Positions 8,910-16,512 of a stretch of 18,628 nucleotides of DNA are shown in pieces. A program made the position numbers and the translations under genes. The DNA is from Ignavibacteria bacterium. Its GTDB lineage: Bacteria; Elusimicrobiota; Endomicrobiia; PHAN01. The notes under the pieces are model-generated. The model was not told the DNA's origin. It saw only the letters and a list, made by a program, of their open reading frames with translations, and ran no database searches. The stretch is from contig JBGFRZ010000070.1 of the NCBI GenBank assembly GCA_041694835.1, forward strand, positions 1 to 18,628, given 5' to 3'. Within the stretch, counting starts at the first letter, position 1. Each line of letters opens with the position of its first letter.

Positions 8910-9467
8910 ATGGATCCAAAACAGATAATTGTCCGATGCGAAGAACTGATGAAAAAAACCGCTGAAAAGCTGCGAAGCGAGTTTGCATCGATAAGAACCG
9001 GGAGGGCATCGGCGGCCATACTTGACGGAATAAAAGTGGAGTCATACGGTTCAATGATAGCAATAAATCAGCTCGCCGCCATAAACATACCGGAGCCAAG
9101 AACTATAGAGATAAAGCCGTGGGATCCGTCGCAGATACCTGCCATAGAAAAGGCGCTCCTCAAATCCGAGCTTGGTCTTACTCCCCAGAACGACGGAAAA
9201 ATTATCCGCCTTTCCATTCCCTCTCTGACGCAGGAAAGGCGAAAGGAGCTCGTCAAAATAGCTCACAAAACCGCCGAGGAATTCAGAGTTGCTGTAAGAA
9301 ACGAAAGAAGGGATGCCGTAGAAAAGATTAAAAAACTTGAAAAGGAAAAAGCGATATCCGAGGATTTGAGAAAAAAATATGAAAGCGACATCCAGAAATT
9401 GACAGACGCCCATATAAAAAAGATAGACGAGTTGCTTTCCCTGAAAGAAAAAGAAATCATGCAATGA
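8910..9467 (+). CDS. frr: Ribosome recycling factor
   Basis: IRTGRAS, LGLTPQNDG, LTQERRKELVK, VRNERRDA, KEKEIM; AGGAGG SD at 8899-8904. Confidence 0.98.
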   Translation: MDPKQIIVRCEELMKKTAEKLRSEFASIRTGRASAAILDGIKVESYGSMIAINQLAAINIPEPRTIEIKPWDPSQIPAIEKALLKSELGLTPQNDGKIIRLSIPSLTQERRKELVKIAHKTAEEFRVAVRNERRDAVEKIKKLEKEKAISEDLRKKYESDIQKLTDAHIKKIDELLSLKEKEIMQ

Positions 9468-10138
9468 ACATTCCAAAGCATGTAGCGATAATAATGGACG
9501 GCAACGGCAGATGGGCCAAAATGCGAGGGTTGCCCCGGCCGATGGGTCACAGAGCGGGGATACGGACGGTAAAAAAAATCATCAAATGCGCCAGTGAAAT
9601 CGGAATAAATATACTGACGCTCTACGCTTTTTCAACGGAAAACTGGGCGCGTCCTAAAGGGGAGATAAAAACTCTTATGACTCTTTTGAAGCAATTTATA
9701 AAAAAAGAAGCCGTCGCCCTTAAAAAAAACAATGTAAAGGTGAATGTTTTGGGGGAGATATCGCCTATTCCGGCAAGAGCCGAGGTGGAAAAGTTGATAG
9801 AAGAAACCAAAGAAAACACGGGTTTGCTCCTGAATATAGCTCTTAACTATGGCGCCAGACAAGAGATAATAAGGGCTGTGAATAAAATCATCGCCGAAGG
9901 AATAAAAAATGTCGACGAAGAAACTTTTGCCGATTATTTATATACGAAAGGCATGAGCGATCCCGAACTTCTCATAAGAACTTCGGGCGAGATGAGGATT
10001 TCGAATTTTCTGCTTTGGCAGATAGCGTACTCCGAAATATATGTGACAAAAACTCTTTGGCCGGATTTCGAAAAAAAAGATCTTCTTGAAGCGATATCAG
10101 ATTACAATAAAAGAGAACGACGTTTCGGCGGCATATGA
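9464..10138 (+). CDS. uppS: Undecaprenyl diphosphate synthase (isoprenyl transferase)
   Basis: PKHVAIIMDGNGRWA, YAFSTENWAR, IRTSGEMRISNFLLWQ, RERRFGG. Confidence 0.98.
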   Translation: MNIPKHVAIIMDGNGRWAKMRGLPRPMGHRAGIRTVKKIIKCASEIGINILTLYAFSTENWARPKGEIKTLMTLLKQFIKKEAVALKKNNVKVNVLGEISPIPARAEVEKLIEETKENTGLLLNIALNYGARQEIIRAVNKIIAEGIKNVDEETFADYLYTKGMSDPELLIRTSGEMRISNFLLWQIAYSEIYVTKTLWPDFEKKDLLEAISDYNKRERRFGGI

Positions 10139-10956
10139 TTCTTCCGAGGATACTTACGGCTGTTATAGGCATACCTTTAGTAATACTCTCCGTCTACTGG
10201 GGCGGTGTGCCATATTTTATTCTTGTAAGCGGCATTCTATTGTTTTCTCTGCGGGAGTTTTTTTTAATTTCGAAAAAAGCGTCTTACAACCCCCACACGG
10301 TTTTGGGGATTATTCTCGGCTATCTATTTTTCGTTTCGATATTTCTTTCTTCCACTTCCTTTAGCCAGAAGGCGGATCATCAACTGGTCCCGATGGTTAT
10401 AACTGTGATTCTGTTCGTCGTTATTCTAATTGAGATTTTTAAAAAAACTCCGCAGAAAGCCATCGAAAGAATTGGAATAACTTTCCTTGGGATTTTTTTC
10501 ATTCCATGGGCGTTTGCGCATCTGGCCAGGATTTACTATCTCAAACCGTATGGCATGGAGCTTGTGTATTTTCTGTTTCTGGTCATATGGGTTTTGGACA
10601 CGGCGGCATATTTCTTCGGGATAAAACTCGGGAAACGCAAACTCGCCGAATCGATCAGTCCCAAAAAATCGACAGAAGGATTTCTCGCTGCAATTATATC
10701 TGCTTCTGTGGTTTCACCTATCCTCTCGGGATTTTTTCTCAAATCTTATCTTGGTGTAGTTGAAAGCGTTTTGCTGGGGTTTTTCATCGCAATCTTCGGT
10801 CAGTTTTCCGACCTTGCCGAATCGCTGATAAAAAGAGACGCTAACATTAAAGATTCGGACATACTTCTTCCCGGTCACGGCGGCATGCTCGACAGATTCG
10901 ACTCGTTTCTTTTCACCGCCCCTCTTTTGTATTACTACATAGTGTTCTTCAAATGA
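10135..10956 (+). CDS. cdsA: Phosphatidate cytidylyltransferase
   Basis: Polytopic membrane protein with DTAAYFFG, ISPKKSTEG, DLAESLIKRDANIKDS, PGHGGMLDRFDS. Confidence 0.97.
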   Translation: MILPRILTAVIGIPLVILSVYWGGVPYFILVSGILLFSLREFFLISKKASYNPHTVLGIILGYLFFVSIFLSSTSFSQKADHQLVPMVITVILFVVILIEIFKKTPQKAIERIGITFLGIFFIPWAFAHLARIYYLKPYGMELVYFLFLVIWVLDTAAYFFGIKLGKRKLAESISPKKSTEGFLAAIISASVVSPILSGFFLKSYLGVVESVLLGFFIAIFGQFSDLAESLIKRDANIKDSDILLPGHGGMLDRFDSFLFTAPLLYYYIVFFK

Positions 10957-10957
10957 A

Positions 10958-11080
10958 CCCCGTTAGAGATACGCTTTTCCAACTCAAGAGTGATAGTTAT
11001 GATGACTGGAGGTAAATAAAGTTTGTCAGGCAAAATTGCAGATGGCACGTCCCGACAACTCGGGACTATCTCTAACGGGA
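10958..11080. mobile_element. 123-bp MITE-like element with terminal inverted repeats and target-site duplication
   Basis: Perfect 13-bp inverted repeat CCCGTTAGAGATA (10959-10971)/TATCTCTAACGGG (11067-11079); flanked by TGAA at 10954-10957 and 11081-11084; no coding capacity. Confidence 0.8.
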
Positions 11081-12213
11081 TGAAAAATATAGTTTTGCTT
11101 GGCTCCACGGGTTCAATTGGACAGAACGTCTTAAACGTAGTCCGTTCTCATCCGCAGAAATTCAGAATTATAGCCCTTGCCGCAGGGGGCTATTCGGAGT
11201 GTTTGCAAAATCAGATACGCGAATTTAAACCGGAGTTTGTTTCCGTCTCCGACTCCAGCACTCTACCTCCAAAAGTTTCTGGAGGGATAAAATGTCTGGC
11301 TGGGATCGAAGGATTAAAAAAACTGGCGTCGCTCAAGTCGGCGGATATTGTCTTCATATCCGTCGTTGGTATGGTAGGGATTCATCCGCTCGCTGCGGCG
11401 ATTTCAAGCAACAAAAAAGTTGCACTCGCAAACAAGGAATCGCTTGTAATAGCGGGTGAGTGTATAAACCAGTTATTAAAGTTGAATAAATCTGCAAAAA
11501 TAATTCCCGTAGATAGCGAGCATTCGGCGATTTTCCAGTGCCTCGAAGGAAACAAAAAAAAATACATCAACAGAATAATCATAACCGCTTCGGGCGGGGC
11601 GTTGTATGGTAAAAAAATAAATTTCCGAAAAATTACGGTTGAAGAAGCGTTAAGGCATCCCACATGGAAAATGGGAAAAAAAATAACCGTCGATTCCGCG
11701 ACTCTTATGAACAAGGGGCTTGAGGTAATCGAAGCTCACGCGCTTTTCGGCATACCCTATGAAAAAATAGATGTTTTGATTCATAAACAGTCGATACTCC
11801 ATTCAATGATTGAATTTATCGATGGGTCAGTGCTCGCACAGATGTCACCCGCTGATATGAGTTTCGCTATTCAGTACGCCATGGGTTATCCCGAAAGGTT
11901 GGGAACGAAACTCGGACGCCTGGAACTCCAAAAAACGAAAAGGCTCGATTTTGAAAAGCCGGATTTCTCAAAGTTCCCATGCTTTAATCTGGCTGTAGAT
12001 GCTGGAAAATCCGGGGGTATAATGCCCGCTGCCATGAATGCGGCGAATGAAATCGCTGTGAACTCTTTTCTTAGTGGAAAAATAAAATTCGGAAAGATAC
12101 CGGAAATAATATCAAGTACGATTTCTAAAATCAAAAACAAACAAAAGCCGACGCTTGACGACATACTTGAAGCCGACTTTTTATCACGAAAAATTGCAGA
12201 GGAGATGATATGA
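11080..12213 (+). CDS. dxr: 1-deoxy-D-xylulose-5-phosphate reductoisomerase
   Basis: MKNIVLLGSTGSIG, LANKESLV, PVDSEHSAIFQ, HPTWKMGKKITVDSATLMNKGLEVIEA, NAANE. Start at ATG 11080, because the ORF-track extension is MITE sequence. Confidence 0.98.
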   Translation: MKNIVLLGSTGSIGQNVLNVVRSHPQKFRIIALAAGGYSECLQNQIREFKPEFVSVSDSSTLPPKVSGGIKCLAGIEGLKKLASLKSADIVFISVVGMVGIHPLAAAISSNKKVALANKESLVIAGECINQLLKLNKSAKIIPVDSEHSAIFQCLEGNKKKYINRIIITASGGALYGKKINFRKITVEEALRHPTWKMGKKITVDSATLMNKGLEVIEAHALFGIPYEKIDVLIHKQSILHSMIEFIDGSVLAQMSPADMSFAIQYAMGYPERLGTKLGRLELQKTKRLDFEKPDFSKFPCFNLAVDAGKSGGIMPAAMNAANEIAVNSFLSGKIKFGKIPEIISSTISKIKNKQKPTLDDILEADFLSRKIAEEMI

Positions 12214-13259: not shown

Positions 13260-14333
13260 GTGTATACAAGGTTAAAGACAAAAAAAATCTTCATAGGGAA
13301 TCTTTCGATTGGAGGCGGCGCCCCTGTGATAGTTCAGACGATGACAAAGACCGACACCGCGGATGTCAGAGCGACCGTAAATCAGATAAAACGCCTTGAG
13401 AGAATCGGCTGCGAAATAATCCGGGTCGCCGTGCCGGATATGACAGCCGCAAAAAAACTTTCGCTCATAAAGAAAAACATAAAAATTCCTCTCGTTGCCG
13501 ACATCCATTACGACTACAAACTCGCTCTCGAGTCGATAAAACAGGGCGCAGACAAGATCAGGATAAATCCCGGCAATATGCCGAAGGAGAAGACGAGGGA
13601 AGTAATAAAAGCGGCGAAAGGTGCTGGAATTCCCATAAGGATAGGCGTGAATGTCGGCTCTCTACGCTCCGCCCACTCCCCGGAACTTGACTCCTATAAA
13701 AAAGCTGGCATGATAGTTTCAACTGCCCTTGAGCACATAAAAATGATGGAGGACATGGATTTTACCGACATAGTCGTGTCGCTGAAATCTTCGGACGTTC
13801 TTACTACGATAAAATCCTACGAGATGTTTGCTGAAAAGAGAAATTATCCCTTGCATATAGGCATCACGGAGTCAGGTCCCCCGGGGATAGGTACGATAAA
13901 ATCCACCGTCGGGATTGGTGTGTTGTTGTATCGGGGTCTCGGAGACACATTGCGCGTTTCCCTTACGTCCGAGCCGGAGAAAGAGGTTGTTGAAGGATAT
14001 CTGATACTCCAGTCTCTGGGATTGAGGAGCCGTGGATTTGATATTATATCGTGTCCGACATGTGGAAGATGCGGCGTTGACTTGATAAAAATAGTTGAAG
14101 AATTTGAAAGAAAAATAACTCATCGCTTATCGCACATTTCTCATCGCTCGCAACCAATAAGGGTAGCGATTATGGGATGCATAGTCAACGGGCCTGGTGA
14201 GGCGAAAGACGCTGACATTGGAATAGCCGCAGGCAAGAATGAGGGGCTTTTATTCAAAAAAGGGAAGCCGATCAAAAAAATAAAACCTGCCGAATGGGTG
14301 AAAGCACTGATGAAGGAAGTCGCCAGTTTATGA
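13260..14333 (+). CDS. ispG: (E)-4-hydroxy-3-methylbut-2-enyl-diphosphate synthase
   Basis: PLVADIHY, RINPGN, IRIGVN, PLHIGITESG, GDTLRVSLT, SCPTCGR, MGCIVNGPGEA. Confidence 0.98.
   Translation: MYTRLKTKKIFIGNLSIGGGAPVIVQTMTKTDTADVRATVNQIKRLERIGCEIIRVAVPDMTAAKKLSLIKKNIKIPLVADIHYDYKLALESIKQGADKIRINPGNMPKEKTREVIKAAKGAGIPIRIGVNVGSLRSAHSPELDSYKKAGMIVSTALEHIKMMEDMDFTDIVVSLKSSDVLTTIKSYEMFAEKRNYPLHIGITESGPPGIGTIKSTVGIGVLLYRGLGDTLRVSLTSEPEKEVVEGYLILQSLGLRSRGFDIISCPTCGRCGVDLIKIVEEFERKITHRLSHISHRSQPIRVAIMGCIVNGPGEAKDADIGIAAGKNEGLLFKKGKPIKKIKPAEWVKALMKEVASL
14119..14153 (+). repeat. In-frame 7-mer tandem array inside ispG
   Basis: CTCATCG CTTATCG CACATTT CTCATCG CTCGCAA, spanning the codons for THRLSHISHRSQ. 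Confidence 0.65.
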
Positions 14334-14788
14334 AACATATATATTTAACAAAAGAAGGTATGGAAAAACTCAAAGGGGAACTCTCAAGCTTAAAAGAGAG
14401 ACGACCTCAGATGGTAAAACATCTCGAAGAAGCGCGGTCACTCGGCGACCTCAGGGAGAACGCAGAGTATCACGCGACGAAAGAGGCGCTCCTCAAGCTC
14501 ACAAAGAGAATTGCCGATATTGAAGATAAAGTCAAAATCGCTCGGGTCATCGAAAAAGTTTCAAACGACACCGCACTCATCGGAGCCGTCGTTCACGTCA
14601 AGAATCTGAACTCTGGCGACGAGTTTAAGTATCAATTAGTGGATCCCGAGGAAGTTGACATAGATTCCGGCAAGATATCTATAAACTCTCCGATAGGTTC
14701 TGGGCTTTTTGAACACAAAGCCGGAGAAACTGTAGAGATAGAAGTTCCATCCGGCACACTGAAACTAACGATAATCAAGATAGAATGA
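14330..14788 (+). CDS. greA: Transcription elongation factor GreA
   Basis: YLTKEGMEKLKGEL, ARSLGDLRENAEY, ISINSPIG; ATG 14330 forms an ATGA overlap with the ispG stop. Confidence 0.96.
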   Translation: MKHIYLTKEGMEKLKGELSSLKERRPQMVKHLEEARSLGDLRENAEYHATKEALLKLTKRIADIEDKVKIARVIEKVSNDTALIGAVVHVKNLNSGDEFKYQLVDPEEVDIDSGKISINSPIGSGLFEHKAGETVEIEVPSGTLKLTIIKIE

Positions 14789-16512
14789 AATACTCAAAAC
14801 TCTTCATACCAACTCTTAAGGAATCTCCCGCTGATGCGGATAATGTCTCGATAAAACTTATGCTCCGCTCGGGAATGGTCAGAAAACTTTCTTCGGGAAT
14901 TTACGAGTGGCTTCCTTTGGGATTAAAAGTCTTAAAAAAAGTTGAAAATATTATTCGTGAAGAAATGAACAAAATAGACGGCCAAGAGGTGTGGCTTCCT
15001 ATTTTGCAGCCGAGAGACCTTTGGGAAGAAACCGGCAGGTGGGGTGTCTATGGGAAAGAACTTTTCCGTCTGAAAGACAGGAAGGAGTCGGATTTCTGCC
15101 TCGGACCAACGCATGAAGAAGTCATAACCGACATTGTCCGAAAAGACGTTCGCTCCTACAAAGAACTTCCGTTAATGTTATATCAGTTTGGAATAAAATT
15201 TCGCGACGAGATCCGCCCGCGTTTTGGAGTAATGAGAGCGCGGGAATTTTATATGAAAGACGCGTATTCTTTTCACGCTACCGAAGATGATGCCGAAAAT
15301 TACTATCATAAGGTTTACAACGCTTATAAAAAAATCTGTGAGCGGTGCGGATTTAAATATCGCGATGTTGAAGCTATAACGGGTGCTATCGGTGGAAAAT
15401 TTTCTCACGAGTTTATGGTTCTTGCCGAGACGGGAGAAGAAGTCATTGCGCATTGCGACTGCGGCTATGGGGCGAATGTAGAAAAAGCCGAATGTGTTCG
15501 TTACGAGCCACGAGCCATGAGCCACGAGCCACTAACCACCAAAGAAATTCACACGCCCAAAATGAAAACCGTAGAGGAAGTCGGCGCTTTTCTAAAATTG
15601 CCTTCAAGTCAATTCATAAAAACACTTGTTTACATCGCAAACAATGTGCCATATATTGTTTTGGTCAGGGGCGATTGCGAAATCAACGAATCAAAACTTG
15701 CTCAGCATCTTGGCGTGGCGGAAGTTGAACTTGCGCCCGCTGAGATTGTTCAAAAAATAACTGGTGCGGCTCTCGGATTTGCCGGCCCCGTCAATCTACC
15801 GTCTTCTGCAAAAGACATAAAAATTCTTGCAGATTACTCGGTTGAAAATATAGAAAACGGCGTCTCCGGCGCAAATAGGAATGATTACCATTTAGTAAAC
15901 ATTACTATTTACAGGGATTATACTCCGTCTGAAATTCTTGATTTAAGATGCACAAAGGAAGGGGATATCTGCCCGAAGTGTAAAAGAGGCAAACTTCAGT
16001 TTTCGCGGGGAATTGAAATAGGACACACTTTTAAACTTGGCAAAAAATACTCAGAGTTACTAAATGCGACTTTTCTTGACTCTGACGGAATGGCAAAACA
16101 TTTCATAATGGGATGCTATGGCATTGGCGTCTCAAGAATTATAGCGGCAGCGATAGAGCAAAACAACGACAAAGACGGCATAATCTGGCACCTGAACATC
16201 GCACCCTTTCAGGTTGTAATATCGCCCGTCGATTATGCCGATGAAAGAATCCGCGCCGCATCATATAAAATCTACAACGAACTACTTTCCAACAACATAG
16301 AAGTTCTCCTCGACGACAGAGACGAGCGCGCGGGGATAAAATTCAAGGATGCTGACCTCTTGGGAATCCCTTTAAGAATTACGGTGGGGAAGAAAAAACT
16401 AAATGAAGGCAAAGTAGAACTCAAACTCCGTAAAGAATCTTCCGCAAAAGACATTCCGCTCGAATCCGCAACACAAAAAACCATAAAAATTCTTTCTGGG
16501 ATTATTGATTAA
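14785..16512 (+). CDS. proS: Proline--tRNA ligase (bacterial type with INS editing domain)
   Basis: LGPTHEEVIT, KFRDEIRPRFGVMRAREF, GFAGP editing domain, GIEIGHTFKLG, MGCYGIGVSR, LLDDRDER. Confidence 0.99.
   Translation: MKYSKLFIPTLKESPADADNVSIKLMLRSGMVRKLSSGIYEWLPLGLKVLKKVENIIREEMNKIDGQEVWLPILQPRDLWEETGRWGVYGKELFRLKDRKESDFCLGPTHEEVITDIVRKDVRSYKELPLMLYQFGIKFRDEIRPRFGVMRAREFYMKDAYSFHATEDDAENYYHKVYNAYKKICERCGFKYRDVEAITGAIGGKFSHEFMVLAETGEEVIAHCDCGYGANVEKAECVRYEPRAMSHEPLTTKEIHTPKMKTVEEVGAFLKLPSSQFIKTLVYIANNVPYIVLVRGDCEINESKLAQHLGVAEVELAPAEIVQKITGAALGFAGPVNLPSSAKDIKILADYSVENIENGVSGANRNDYHLVNITIYRDYTPSEILDLRCTKEGDICPKCKRGKLQFSRGIEIGHTFKLGKKYSELLNATFLDSDGMAKHFIMGCYGIGVSRIIAAAIEQNNDKDGIIWHLNIAPFQVVISPVDYADERIRAASYKIYNELLSNNIEVLLDDRDERAGIKFKDADLLGIPLRITVGKKKLNEGKVELKLRKESSAKDIPLESATQKTIKILSGIID
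15500..15541 (+). repeat. In-frame 6x 7-mer tandem array inside proS
   Basis: GTTACGA GCCACGA GCCATGA GCCACGA GCCACTA ACCACCA = 42 bp, spanning the codons for RYEPRAMSHEPLTT. Confidence 0.85.

Follow-up and report, generated by a model that had tools for sequence, protein, structure and literature searches.

The Correia or NEMIS elements of Neisseria are miniature inverted-repeat transposable elements (MITEs) that are co-transcribed with operons, duplicate TA and are thought to derive from transposase-encoding insertion sequences, and the MIRU of mycobacteria are tandem direct repeats that are not known to have inverted ends, a target duplication or a nuclease partner. GIY-YIG homing endonucleases, such as I-TevI and the products of the phage seg genes, are 2-3 times larger than the nuclease discussed below and have separate DNA-binding domains; they copy themselves by repair into one cognate allele, and they are not known to have inverted ends, duplications or gene-less miniatures. 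The closest published system to the one presented here is Ssn/SRM (Chenal 2025, Nat Commun, PMC11893778), in which nucleases of about 94 amino acids, consisting of a single GIY-YIG domain (CDD cd10448), cut single-stranded DNA adjoining hairpin repeats that flank their own genes. The NTS repeats of Neisseria have been proposed to be recognition sites of the single-strand nuclease SsnA, and the insertion sequence-like gene architecture is mentioned as a hypothesis only, cutting being the one activity shown (PMC11893778). Here, we describe a gene-less element of 123 bp which separates cdsA from dxr in an 18,628-nucleotide stretch of DNA from an Ignavibacteria bacterium (GenBank assembly GCA_041694835.1, contig JBGFRZ010000070.1); the whole of this stretch is called the window. 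It is most likely a non-autonomous element (MITE) that was inserted into an ATGA stop/start overlap, shares its ends with small units encoding a GIY-YIG nuclease, was presumably mobilized in trans by such a nuclease and is crossed by a putative translation relay. All coordinates are window positions unless a contig (C-number) is given; G000 denotes the source genome, of which the assembly comprises 1.9 Mb in 89 contigs and is 97% complete, and G001-G121 and the like denote other genomes of the class.

The junction reads, in this order, the 3' end of cdsA, ATGAA (10953-57), C (10958), CCCGTTAGAGATA (10959-71), an interior of 95 bases, TATCTCTAACGGG (11067-79) and ATGAAAAAT (11080 onward). Each arm is the reverse complement of the other at 13/13 positions, and TGAA is found on both flanks. 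Despite the element at their junction, cdsA and dxr are both intact members of an operon that consists, according to Pfam, of pyrH, frr, uppS, cdsA, dxr, rseP, ispG, greA and proS. The first Dxr domain (DXP_reductoisom) starts at residue 4 of the protein read from ATG 11080-82, indicating that this ATG is the natural dxr start. The preliminary description, which was made from the window alone, had placed a MITE exactly in the cdsA/dxr ATGA overlap, with the duplication keeping the cdsA stop and regenerating the dxr start, and both statements agree with this layout (Table 1). The same coupling was correctly reported at five other junctions, namely frr/uppS (9464), uppS/cdsA (10135), dxr/rseP (12210), ispG/greA (14330) and greA/proS (14785); the overlaps of the ATGAA type among them (9464-9468, 14330-14334 and 14785-14789) are all unoccupied.

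Table 1. Features of the cdsA/dxr junction (window coordinates).
Feature	Position	Strand	Remarks
cdsA	10135..10956	+	273 codons + stop; TGA 10954-10956 lies inside the left duplication copy; Pfam CTP_transf_1, E 7e-58
Left ATGA	10953..10956	+	cdsA stop and former dxr start, now an orphan ATG opening putative relay ORF a; single ATGA at the G001 empty site
Left TGAA, 4-bp target duplication copy	10954..10957		Based on sequence, G001 empty site and family flanks
Non-coding element (MITE)	10958..11080		123 bp; first base C (10958), last base A (11080); missing at the orthologous G001 site
Left terminal inverted repeat CCCGTTAGAGATA	10959..10971		11-base core 97-100% conserved at both ends of 59 nuclease-bearing elements
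Subterminal 7-bp hairpin adjoining the right repeat	11049..11066		GTCCCGA, CAAC loop, TCGGGAC; kept in both sibling copies
Right terminal inverted repeat TATCTCTAACGGG	11067..11079		Encodes C-terminal L-S-L-T-G in nuclease-bearing relatives
Right TGAA, 4-bp target duplication copy	11081..11084		Based on sequence, G001 empty site and family flanks
dxr	11080..12213	+	377 codons + stop; three DXP reductoisomerase Pfam domains; first base of ATG is the last base of the element
Putative relay ORF a	10953..11015	+	20 codons (MNPVRD...); starts at the orphan ATG, crosses the left repeat and stops at TAA 11013-15
GGAGG (11008-12) followed by TTG (11023-25)	11008..11025	+	In the dxr frame; possible alternative start, +19 residues; GGAGG absent from sibling copies
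Putative relay ORF b	11042..11083	+	13 codons crossing the right repeat, last residues ...LSLTG; stop TGA and dxr ATG share an ATGA; start codon replaced by ATA in siblings

To identify the corresponding site in other genomes, the DNA of the junction region was searched for in 41 genomes (G000 and 40 relatives), and the orthologous site was matched in two genomes of the same family, G001 and G002. The G001 junction is a single ATGA overlap and reads exactly as the window minus the element and minus one TGAA; the empty site predicted in the preliminary description by removing the element and one duplicated copy was thus found letter for letter. In G002, a TAA and a 30-base spacer stand in place of the overlap. 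When the cdsA/dxr loci of 29 relatives were scored with a simple Dxr N-terminal motif, nine were evaluable and 20 gave no motif; the ATGA overlap was present in three of the nine (G001, G018 and G006), a 1-base overlap in one and a spacer in four, the ninth, G002, having been scored by the script from an upstream GTG. The overlap expected in relatives that lack the element therefore does occur among them, and the segment is confirmed to be a MITE insertion into an ancestral cdsA/dxr ATGA overlap. As to the spacers themselves, the 30 bases of G002 are G+C-rich and those of G012 number 108 and contain a small hairpin, and they may be footprints or insertions of other elements.

The element belongs to a repeat family in the source genome. 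Its 9-mer core was counted 63 times on one strand of G000 and 53 times on the other, as against 5.6 expected per strand, and ACCCCGTTAGA occurs 42 and 29 times, as against 0 and 1 for the reversed control. Pairing of left and right cores with at most one mismatch in total and within 1.5 kb yielded 64 pairs in the 89 contigs, most of them 51-121 bp long. Omission of 12 hairpins of 27 bp, one pair of 1487 bp that encloses gatA, two nested pairs and two with identical flanks left 47 non-redundant copies, which are typically arranged with their flanks as T-N-N-A, C, element, G, T-N-N-A. An exact 4-bp direct repeat borders 18 of the 47 copies (TAAA in eight, TGAA in four, TTTA in two, and CGGA, CTCG, TTCA and TTGA in one each), and many other copies match at three of the four positions. 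With shuffled right flanks, the mean number was 4.9 and the maximum 13, so that none of 5000 shuffles reached 18; target duplications in other copies, for which the preliminary description had called, are thus present. A 5-base extension of the inverted repeat is exact in none of the 47.

These flanks also bear on the extent of the duplication, which the preliminary description had put at ATGAA. A fifth duplicated base matches in only 6/47 copies as compared with 18/47 for the 4-mer, and the duplication is therefore read as 4 bp plus an element-owned terminal C/G or T/A pair. The family data favor, for the window copy, a duplication of TGAA with C 10958 and A 11080 probably belonging to the element. 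The 5-bp duplication was rejected by this count and by the copy at C71:27223, in which the base in question is G on the left and A on the right.

The closest kin of the window copy in G000 are two sibling copies, C71:30731-30853 and C71:31857-31979, to which it is 75% identical, which belong with it to a 121-bp subfamily and which differ from each other at 3 of 123 positions. The siblings bracket purM in direct orientation, one of them lying at the purM stop codon, which looks like a local hop or a duplication; a search of G001 and G002 at the DNA level found no empty site for either of them. At 12 further sites in G000 (e.g. C44:8122-8148, C73:2083-2109 and C84:116781-116807), two 9-base cores and a 9-base loop form the 27-bp hairpins mentioned above. 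Ten of the 12 head a different and longer conserved repeat of at least about 120 bp, which has ...GGCATTCAC or, slightly altered, ...GACATTCAC at the end of the left flank and goes on in the right flank with GCAAGGAG or GTAAGGAG...CACGAAAG....

The placement of the copies was assessed using host open reading frames (ORFs), defined crudely as stop-to-stop frames of at least 80 codons. A host ORF stops inside the 4-bp flank in 8/47 copies, as compared with a rate of 3.7% for T[AG]AA sites in general (binomial P = 3e-4), and one starts on the terminal base in 4/47, which is no more than the null of 8.4%. Both a stop and a start are hit in two copies, the window copy and C54:39002. In the C71:27223 copy, the right terminal A likewise makes an ATG, before an ORF of 267 codons, and the base to the left of its TGAA is G. 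Long frames overlap as [AG]TGA at about 237 places in G000, with A as the next base at 123, and almost all of these places are free of the element. Overlap targeting is thus allowed in G000 and is not the rule. The preference for (A)TGAA at stop/start overlaps that had been proposed has to be widened to T-N-N-A, with two of 47 copies on overlaps and some 123 [AG]TGAA overlaps left vacant. The link to start codons is strong in the nuclease-bearing copies of other phyla described below (24/60), and not in G000.

Across the 122 genomes of the class, the distribution of the family is patchy: ACCCCGTTAGA was counted 71 times in G000, 130 in G118, 42 in G120, 22 in G114, 12 in G043 and six each in G010 and G119, so that seven of the 122 genomes have at least six matches. 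The count was 0 in G001 and G002, the two nearest relatives, and at most 3 in the other 113 genomes, with 0-2 for the reversed control. The motif-rich genomes come from different families, indicating horizontal spread. Tandem copies of the element in G120 (L079, C18:105300-105548) and G118 (L076, C4:35580-35800) share a junction of 5-6 bases (for example, ...GGG GTCAC CCC...), and this junction may be informative on the cutting geometry.

Copies sampled from the motif-rich genomes include units of about 280 bp in G120 and G119 that have the ends of the window element and carry an ORF of 87-93 codons on one strand. The ORF matches the Pfam family GIY-YIG (PF01541) with E values of 3e-17 and 3e-13 (63.1 and 50.5 bits, with a cut-off of 22.6), as one domain over residues 3-69 of a nuclease of 85-90 amino acids. 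The right inverted repeat encodes the last residues of the nuclease, L-S-L-T-G, and the flanking T[AG]A is its stop codon. In a class-wide protein search, close homologs (62-73% identity) were found only in G120, G119 (two), G010 and G013 (a fragment), each with the motif about 20 bases upstream of its start. An ORF between the same ends, for which the preliminary description had asked, is therefore present in other genomes, and none was found in G000. The nearest proteins of solved structure are the UPF0213 members 1ZG2 (E 7.8e-7) and 1YWL, and the only match in NCBIfam was a sub-threshold one to the group I intron endonuclease family TIGR01453 (25 bits, cut-off 56).

A wider scan, with one genome per species and the alignment of four proteins as query, matched at least 606 stretches and confirmed at least 538 relatives, and we analyzed in detail the loci of the best 80 of these at least 538, which are 64-78% identical. 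By their record titles, they come from Patescibacteria (44), Omnitrophota (7), Desulfobacterota-like groups (7), Planctomycetota (5), Elusimicrobiota (3), Clostridia (2), Nitrospirota (2), three other named groups (one each) and unclassified bacteria (7). Both ends are present in 68 of the 80, ten having failed the ORF filter and two lacking the right end. Apart from three outliers, the units are 271-285 bp long, and the GIY-YIG nuclease of about 87 amino acids is their sole ORF. Among 59 copies, both ends show 97-100% conservation of the 11-base core, the median protein identity being 71%, and the columns Y-x-Y, Y-T-G, R-K-R, H-N and Y-Y-E-A, invariant in the four query sequences, are at least 95% conserved; we take these columns to be the GIY-YIG motif residues (two Tyr-containing motifs, Arg, His/Asn and Glu). 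A profile search of 1.84 billion cluster representatives gave 10,002 relatives at E 0.001, 2,301 at 1e-10 and 19 at 1e-30.

The flanks of the units were evaluated in 60 copies with non-identical flanks. The terminal base pair is C..G in 29 and T..A in 25 of them, and an exact 4-bp repeat, which is TGAA in 11 cases, occurs in 14 (shuffle mean 6.5; none of 5000 reached 14). The right flank is TGAA in 32/60 and TAAA in 12/60. The terminal base together with the two following flank bases makes ATG in 25 and GTG in 11 units, and in 24 the terminal base is the first base of a host ORF that is 60 or more codons long. A start codon lies in the left flank, at the position of the orphan ATG of the window, in 18 units; the frame that it opens continues across the repeat (M-N-P-V-R...) into that of the nuclease in 11 of the 18, in four this frame ends after 6-7 codons and the nuclease starts 1-8 bases later, and the remaining three are irregular. 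In 13 of these 18, the duplicated host ATG opens a frame that begins with MNPVR. Neighboring long ORFs mostly point the same way as the nuclease (33 as against 7 upstream, 27 as against 5 downstream). By its frames, the complete unit thus draws both its start and its stop from the duplicated ATGA and restores the start of the host gene: it consists of one ORF over its whole length, with the right repeat as its last codons, the flanking T[GA]A as its stop and, often, the duplicated host ATG as its start.

In G000, no gene of this nuclease subfamily was found in the 97%-complete assembly (best E 0.018), and the Pfam GIY-YIG matches are only a frame of 438 amino acids and two truncated remnants of 44-47 codons on C7, of a different family. 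The nuclease is therefore likely to be absent from G000, in which case the window copy is an orphan MITE, and G000 probably holds a relic population of about 50 copies without the enzyme. The two remnants on C7 (21399-21494 and 22934-23056; L203 and L204) keep only the first 33 or so codons and are bracketed by another inverted repeat, ATCCCGCACCTA...TTTGTAT, of which the right arm encodes Q-Y-K-V-G-A-G, as in a longer homolog in G002 (L102). They look like a second family of nuclease plus inverted ends with internally deleted copies. More distantly related small GIY-YIG ORFs (31-44% identity; L096 in G044, L097 and L117 in G039, L099 in G118, L100 in G003 and L118 in G114) end in or directly before sequence resembling the 5' part of a tRNA, with a near-copy of that stretch upstream of the ORF, which suggests a branch of the family that inserts into tRNA genes with a duplication of roughly 20 bases.

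We propose that a nuclease supplied in trans would recognize the CCCGTTAGAGA ends, either as a duplex or as a hairpin in single-stranded DNA, and would cut at their outer edge, with insertion at T-N-N-A sites by a 4-base stagger. At the cdsA/dxr junction, the insertion duplicated TGAA: the cdsA stop is preserved in the left copy, and the dxr ATG is restored by the right copy and the final A of the element. It is possible, and we put it forward tentatively, that the GIY-YIG protein of about 87 residues is itself the transposase of an unrecognized class of prokaryotic mobile elements. Under this joint proposition, a unit of about 275 bp would be the smallest self-contained transposable unit, having neither a start nor a stop codon of its own; it would land on ATGA-type overlaps or start codons, where the duplication would give an ATG start on the left, a TGA stop on the right and a rebuilt host start; and it would ride in essential operons of at least nine bacterial phyla and shed gene-less miniatures like the cdsA/dxr copy.

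Several points weigh against mobilization by the nuclease or against parts of this account. No GIY-YIG enzyme is known to join DNA or to perform strand transfer. The window element shares only about 14-18 bases per end with the nuclease units, alignment showed no convincing homology of its interior to them beyond the ends, and besides the missing gene in G000, four of the seven motif-rich genomes (G000, G118, G114 and G043) have no homolog above 49% identity. There is a single empty site, from another genus, and the insertion is old, as the window copy is only 75% identical to its siblings. The relay features discussed below come from one copy. In about one third of the nuclease units, and in most of the copies sampled from G118, G119 and G120, the left flank is TT[TC]A and the right flank T[GA]AA, which is an extended inverted repeat and no duplication. 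Finally, a model resembling IS200/IS605, in which the right tetranucleotide is borne by the element and insertion occurs after a similar one, fits the filled and empty sites of the window pair equally well. Such tetranucleotide-adjacent insertion would account for the constant T[GA]AA right end of the units (44/60), and the right TGAA of the window would then be element-borne, too. The right tetranucleotide of the units may be either selected as the stop codon of the nuclease or carried with the element as in IS200/IS605. The copy-specific repeats CGGA, CTCG, TTGA and TGAG, on the other hand, argue for a true duplication in at least part of the family.

DDE transposition is marked by terminal inverted repeats and a short target duplication, and the element could accordingly be an ordinary MITE of a classical DDE insertion sequence with 4-bp duplications, the GIY-YIG gene being a mere passenger. 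Both signs are present here, and the want of a known strand transfer by GIY-YIG enzymes and the four motif-rich genomes without the nuclease would also suit this explanation. However, no transposase ORF lies between these ends in G000, where the long pairs hold purM, gatA or no long or nuclease-like ORF. A search of this one 97%-complete assembly for three Pfam transposase families gave no match to PF13701, only a 22-bit fragment to PF01609 (C46) and one rve gene to PF00665 (C42) without the motif nearby. Moreover, the 68 units with both ends among the best 80 loci, 271-285 bp in length, have the nuclease as sole ORF with its frame fused to both ends, unlike the passengers of insertion sequences. 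We therefore consider a DDE origin unlikely.

It is very unlikely that the repeats are sites of an Ssn-like single-strand nuclease kept by the host and spread by recombination or slippage, with the cdsA/dxr copy as a by-product. The copy-specific 4-bp direct repeats and the clean empty site speak against it, as do the scattered occurrence of the family among close relatives and its near identity in different phyla; the repeats in G000 lack a nuclease, so that no host function of the repeat-nuclease pair can operate there. The published SRM motif matches none of the 68 units and not the window element, and its nine matches in G000 compare with 3-8 in shuffles. In its favor, the partner is here, too, a single-domain GIY-YIG protein, and the Ssn family comprises such proteins of about 94 amino acids, with genes flanked by their own repeats and hundreds of repeat copies per genome (PMC11893778).

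A palindrome of the REP/REPIN type mobilized by a RAYT, i.e. a Y1 HUH transposase, is highly improbable and largely refuted. G000 has one Y1_Tnp protein (C41:8754-9464, 48.5 bits), and G118, where the motif is most abundant, likewise leads the class in Y1_Tnp matches (15); however, the 237-codon Y1_Tnp gene of G000 (L060 1416-2173) is flanked by its own, unrelated perfect 21-bp inverted repeat, the exact motif is near none of ten Y1_Tnp loci examined in G000, G118, G120, G114 and G119, and Y1_Tnp occurs in 45 of the 122 genomes, including the motif-free G001, G002, G012 and G121. Y1 transposition, furthermore, leaves no target duplication, whereas duplications are seen here. A native operon hairpin, acting as an attenuator or processing site, would explain a strong fold (z -4.5) between two co-transcribed genes, and is refuted by the plain ATGA overlap without it in G001 and by the dozens of copies in unrelated contexts; the whole window has no Rfam match at gathering thresholds, either.

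With the segment read as an inserted MITE, its effect on dxr translation has to be considered. The element RNA folds at -45.3 kcal/mol (z -4.5), and none of 200 shuffles was as stable; in the mRNA, the ends pair into a 13-bp stem, and the dxr ATG lies at the 3' foot of this stem. The stem that the preliminary description had placed over the dxr initiation region is thus real. The uncoupling of dxr that it had deduced is doubtful, as far as the reading frames tell, since two short ORFs cross the arms of the hairpin, ORF a the left arm and ORF b the right arm, the latter with its stop on the dxr ATG. The two ORFs look like a relay rather than an interruption of dxr translation. Ribosomes may restart at the orphan ATG 10953 and, by translating ORF a, melt the left arm, after which ORF b, or the TTG at 11023, would deliver them to the dxr start; the 13-bp stem would be opened by a ribosome that terminates at the end of cdsA or is under way in ORF a. 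The GGAGG and the ATG at 11042 are found in the window copy only and in neither of the C71 siblings, and in this comparison of three copies only, they may be compensatory changes after the insertion. Such copies give rise to spurious N-terminal extensions in annotation, and the ORF finder indeed calls dxr from TTG 11023.

If the nuclease moves the units, GIY-YIG would join the DDE, HUH, serine and tyrosine enzymes as a chemistry of bacterial transposition, in a unit small enough for complete dissection. ATGA is the commonest junction in compact genomes, and a duplication there both repairs the stop and start of the host and supplies the translation signals of the element. This insertion logic would account for a selfish element inside essential operons, here the pyrH-frr-uppS-cdsA-dxr-rseP-ispG cluster. 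Our full-text search of the literature found no account of prokaryotic GIY-YIG units that have inverted ends, duplicate their target or give rise to MITE derivatives, although the supplement of PMC11893778 may list members, and COG2827, YhbQ and UPF0213 do not occur in the available text of PMC1564403; this nuclease-associated element family appears to be undescribed in print.

Comparison with known systems brings out both kinship and difference. Like Ssn/SRM, the family combines a single-domain GIY-YIG protein of about 90 residues with a short repeat that brackets its gene and is also present in tens to hundreds of gene-less copies (PMC11893778). In contrast to Ssn/SRM, the SRM search motif is found in none of the 68 units, within 60 bp on either side, and nowhere in the window element; the Ssn repeats are self-contained hairpins of 20-50 nt, whereas here two arms 60-280 bp apart bound a unit; and the passages concerned contain no target duplications, empty sites, MITE derivatives or insertion at stop/start codons, the term 'target site' occurring 0 times in the text (PMC11893778). 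With IS200/IS605 and REP/RAYT, to which an analogy is also drawn in PMC11893778 for Ssn, the family would share a small nuclease acting on hairpin-forming ends, possibly in single-stranded DNA, and insertion beside a specific tetranucleotide, and it differs from them in having a GIY-YIG rather than a HUH Y1 enzyme and copy-specific duplications (CGGA, CTCG, TTGA and TGAG). As with the GIY-YIG homing endonucleases, a selfish nuclease gene spreads between genomes, and there is the weak, sub-threshold match to TIGR01453. The likeness to MIRU lies in a small intercistronic repeat with short ORFs that overlap the flanking stop and start and would pass the coupling on, whereas inverted ends, a target duplication and a nuclease partner set the window family apart. 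Like Correia/NEMIS, it consists of short gene-less elements with inverted ends and a target duplication, present in many intergenic copies and forming a long hairpin in the mRNA, but its gene-bearing relatives encode only a GIY-YIG nuclease, its duplication is 4 bp long (T-N-N-A) and its ends are readable in frame.

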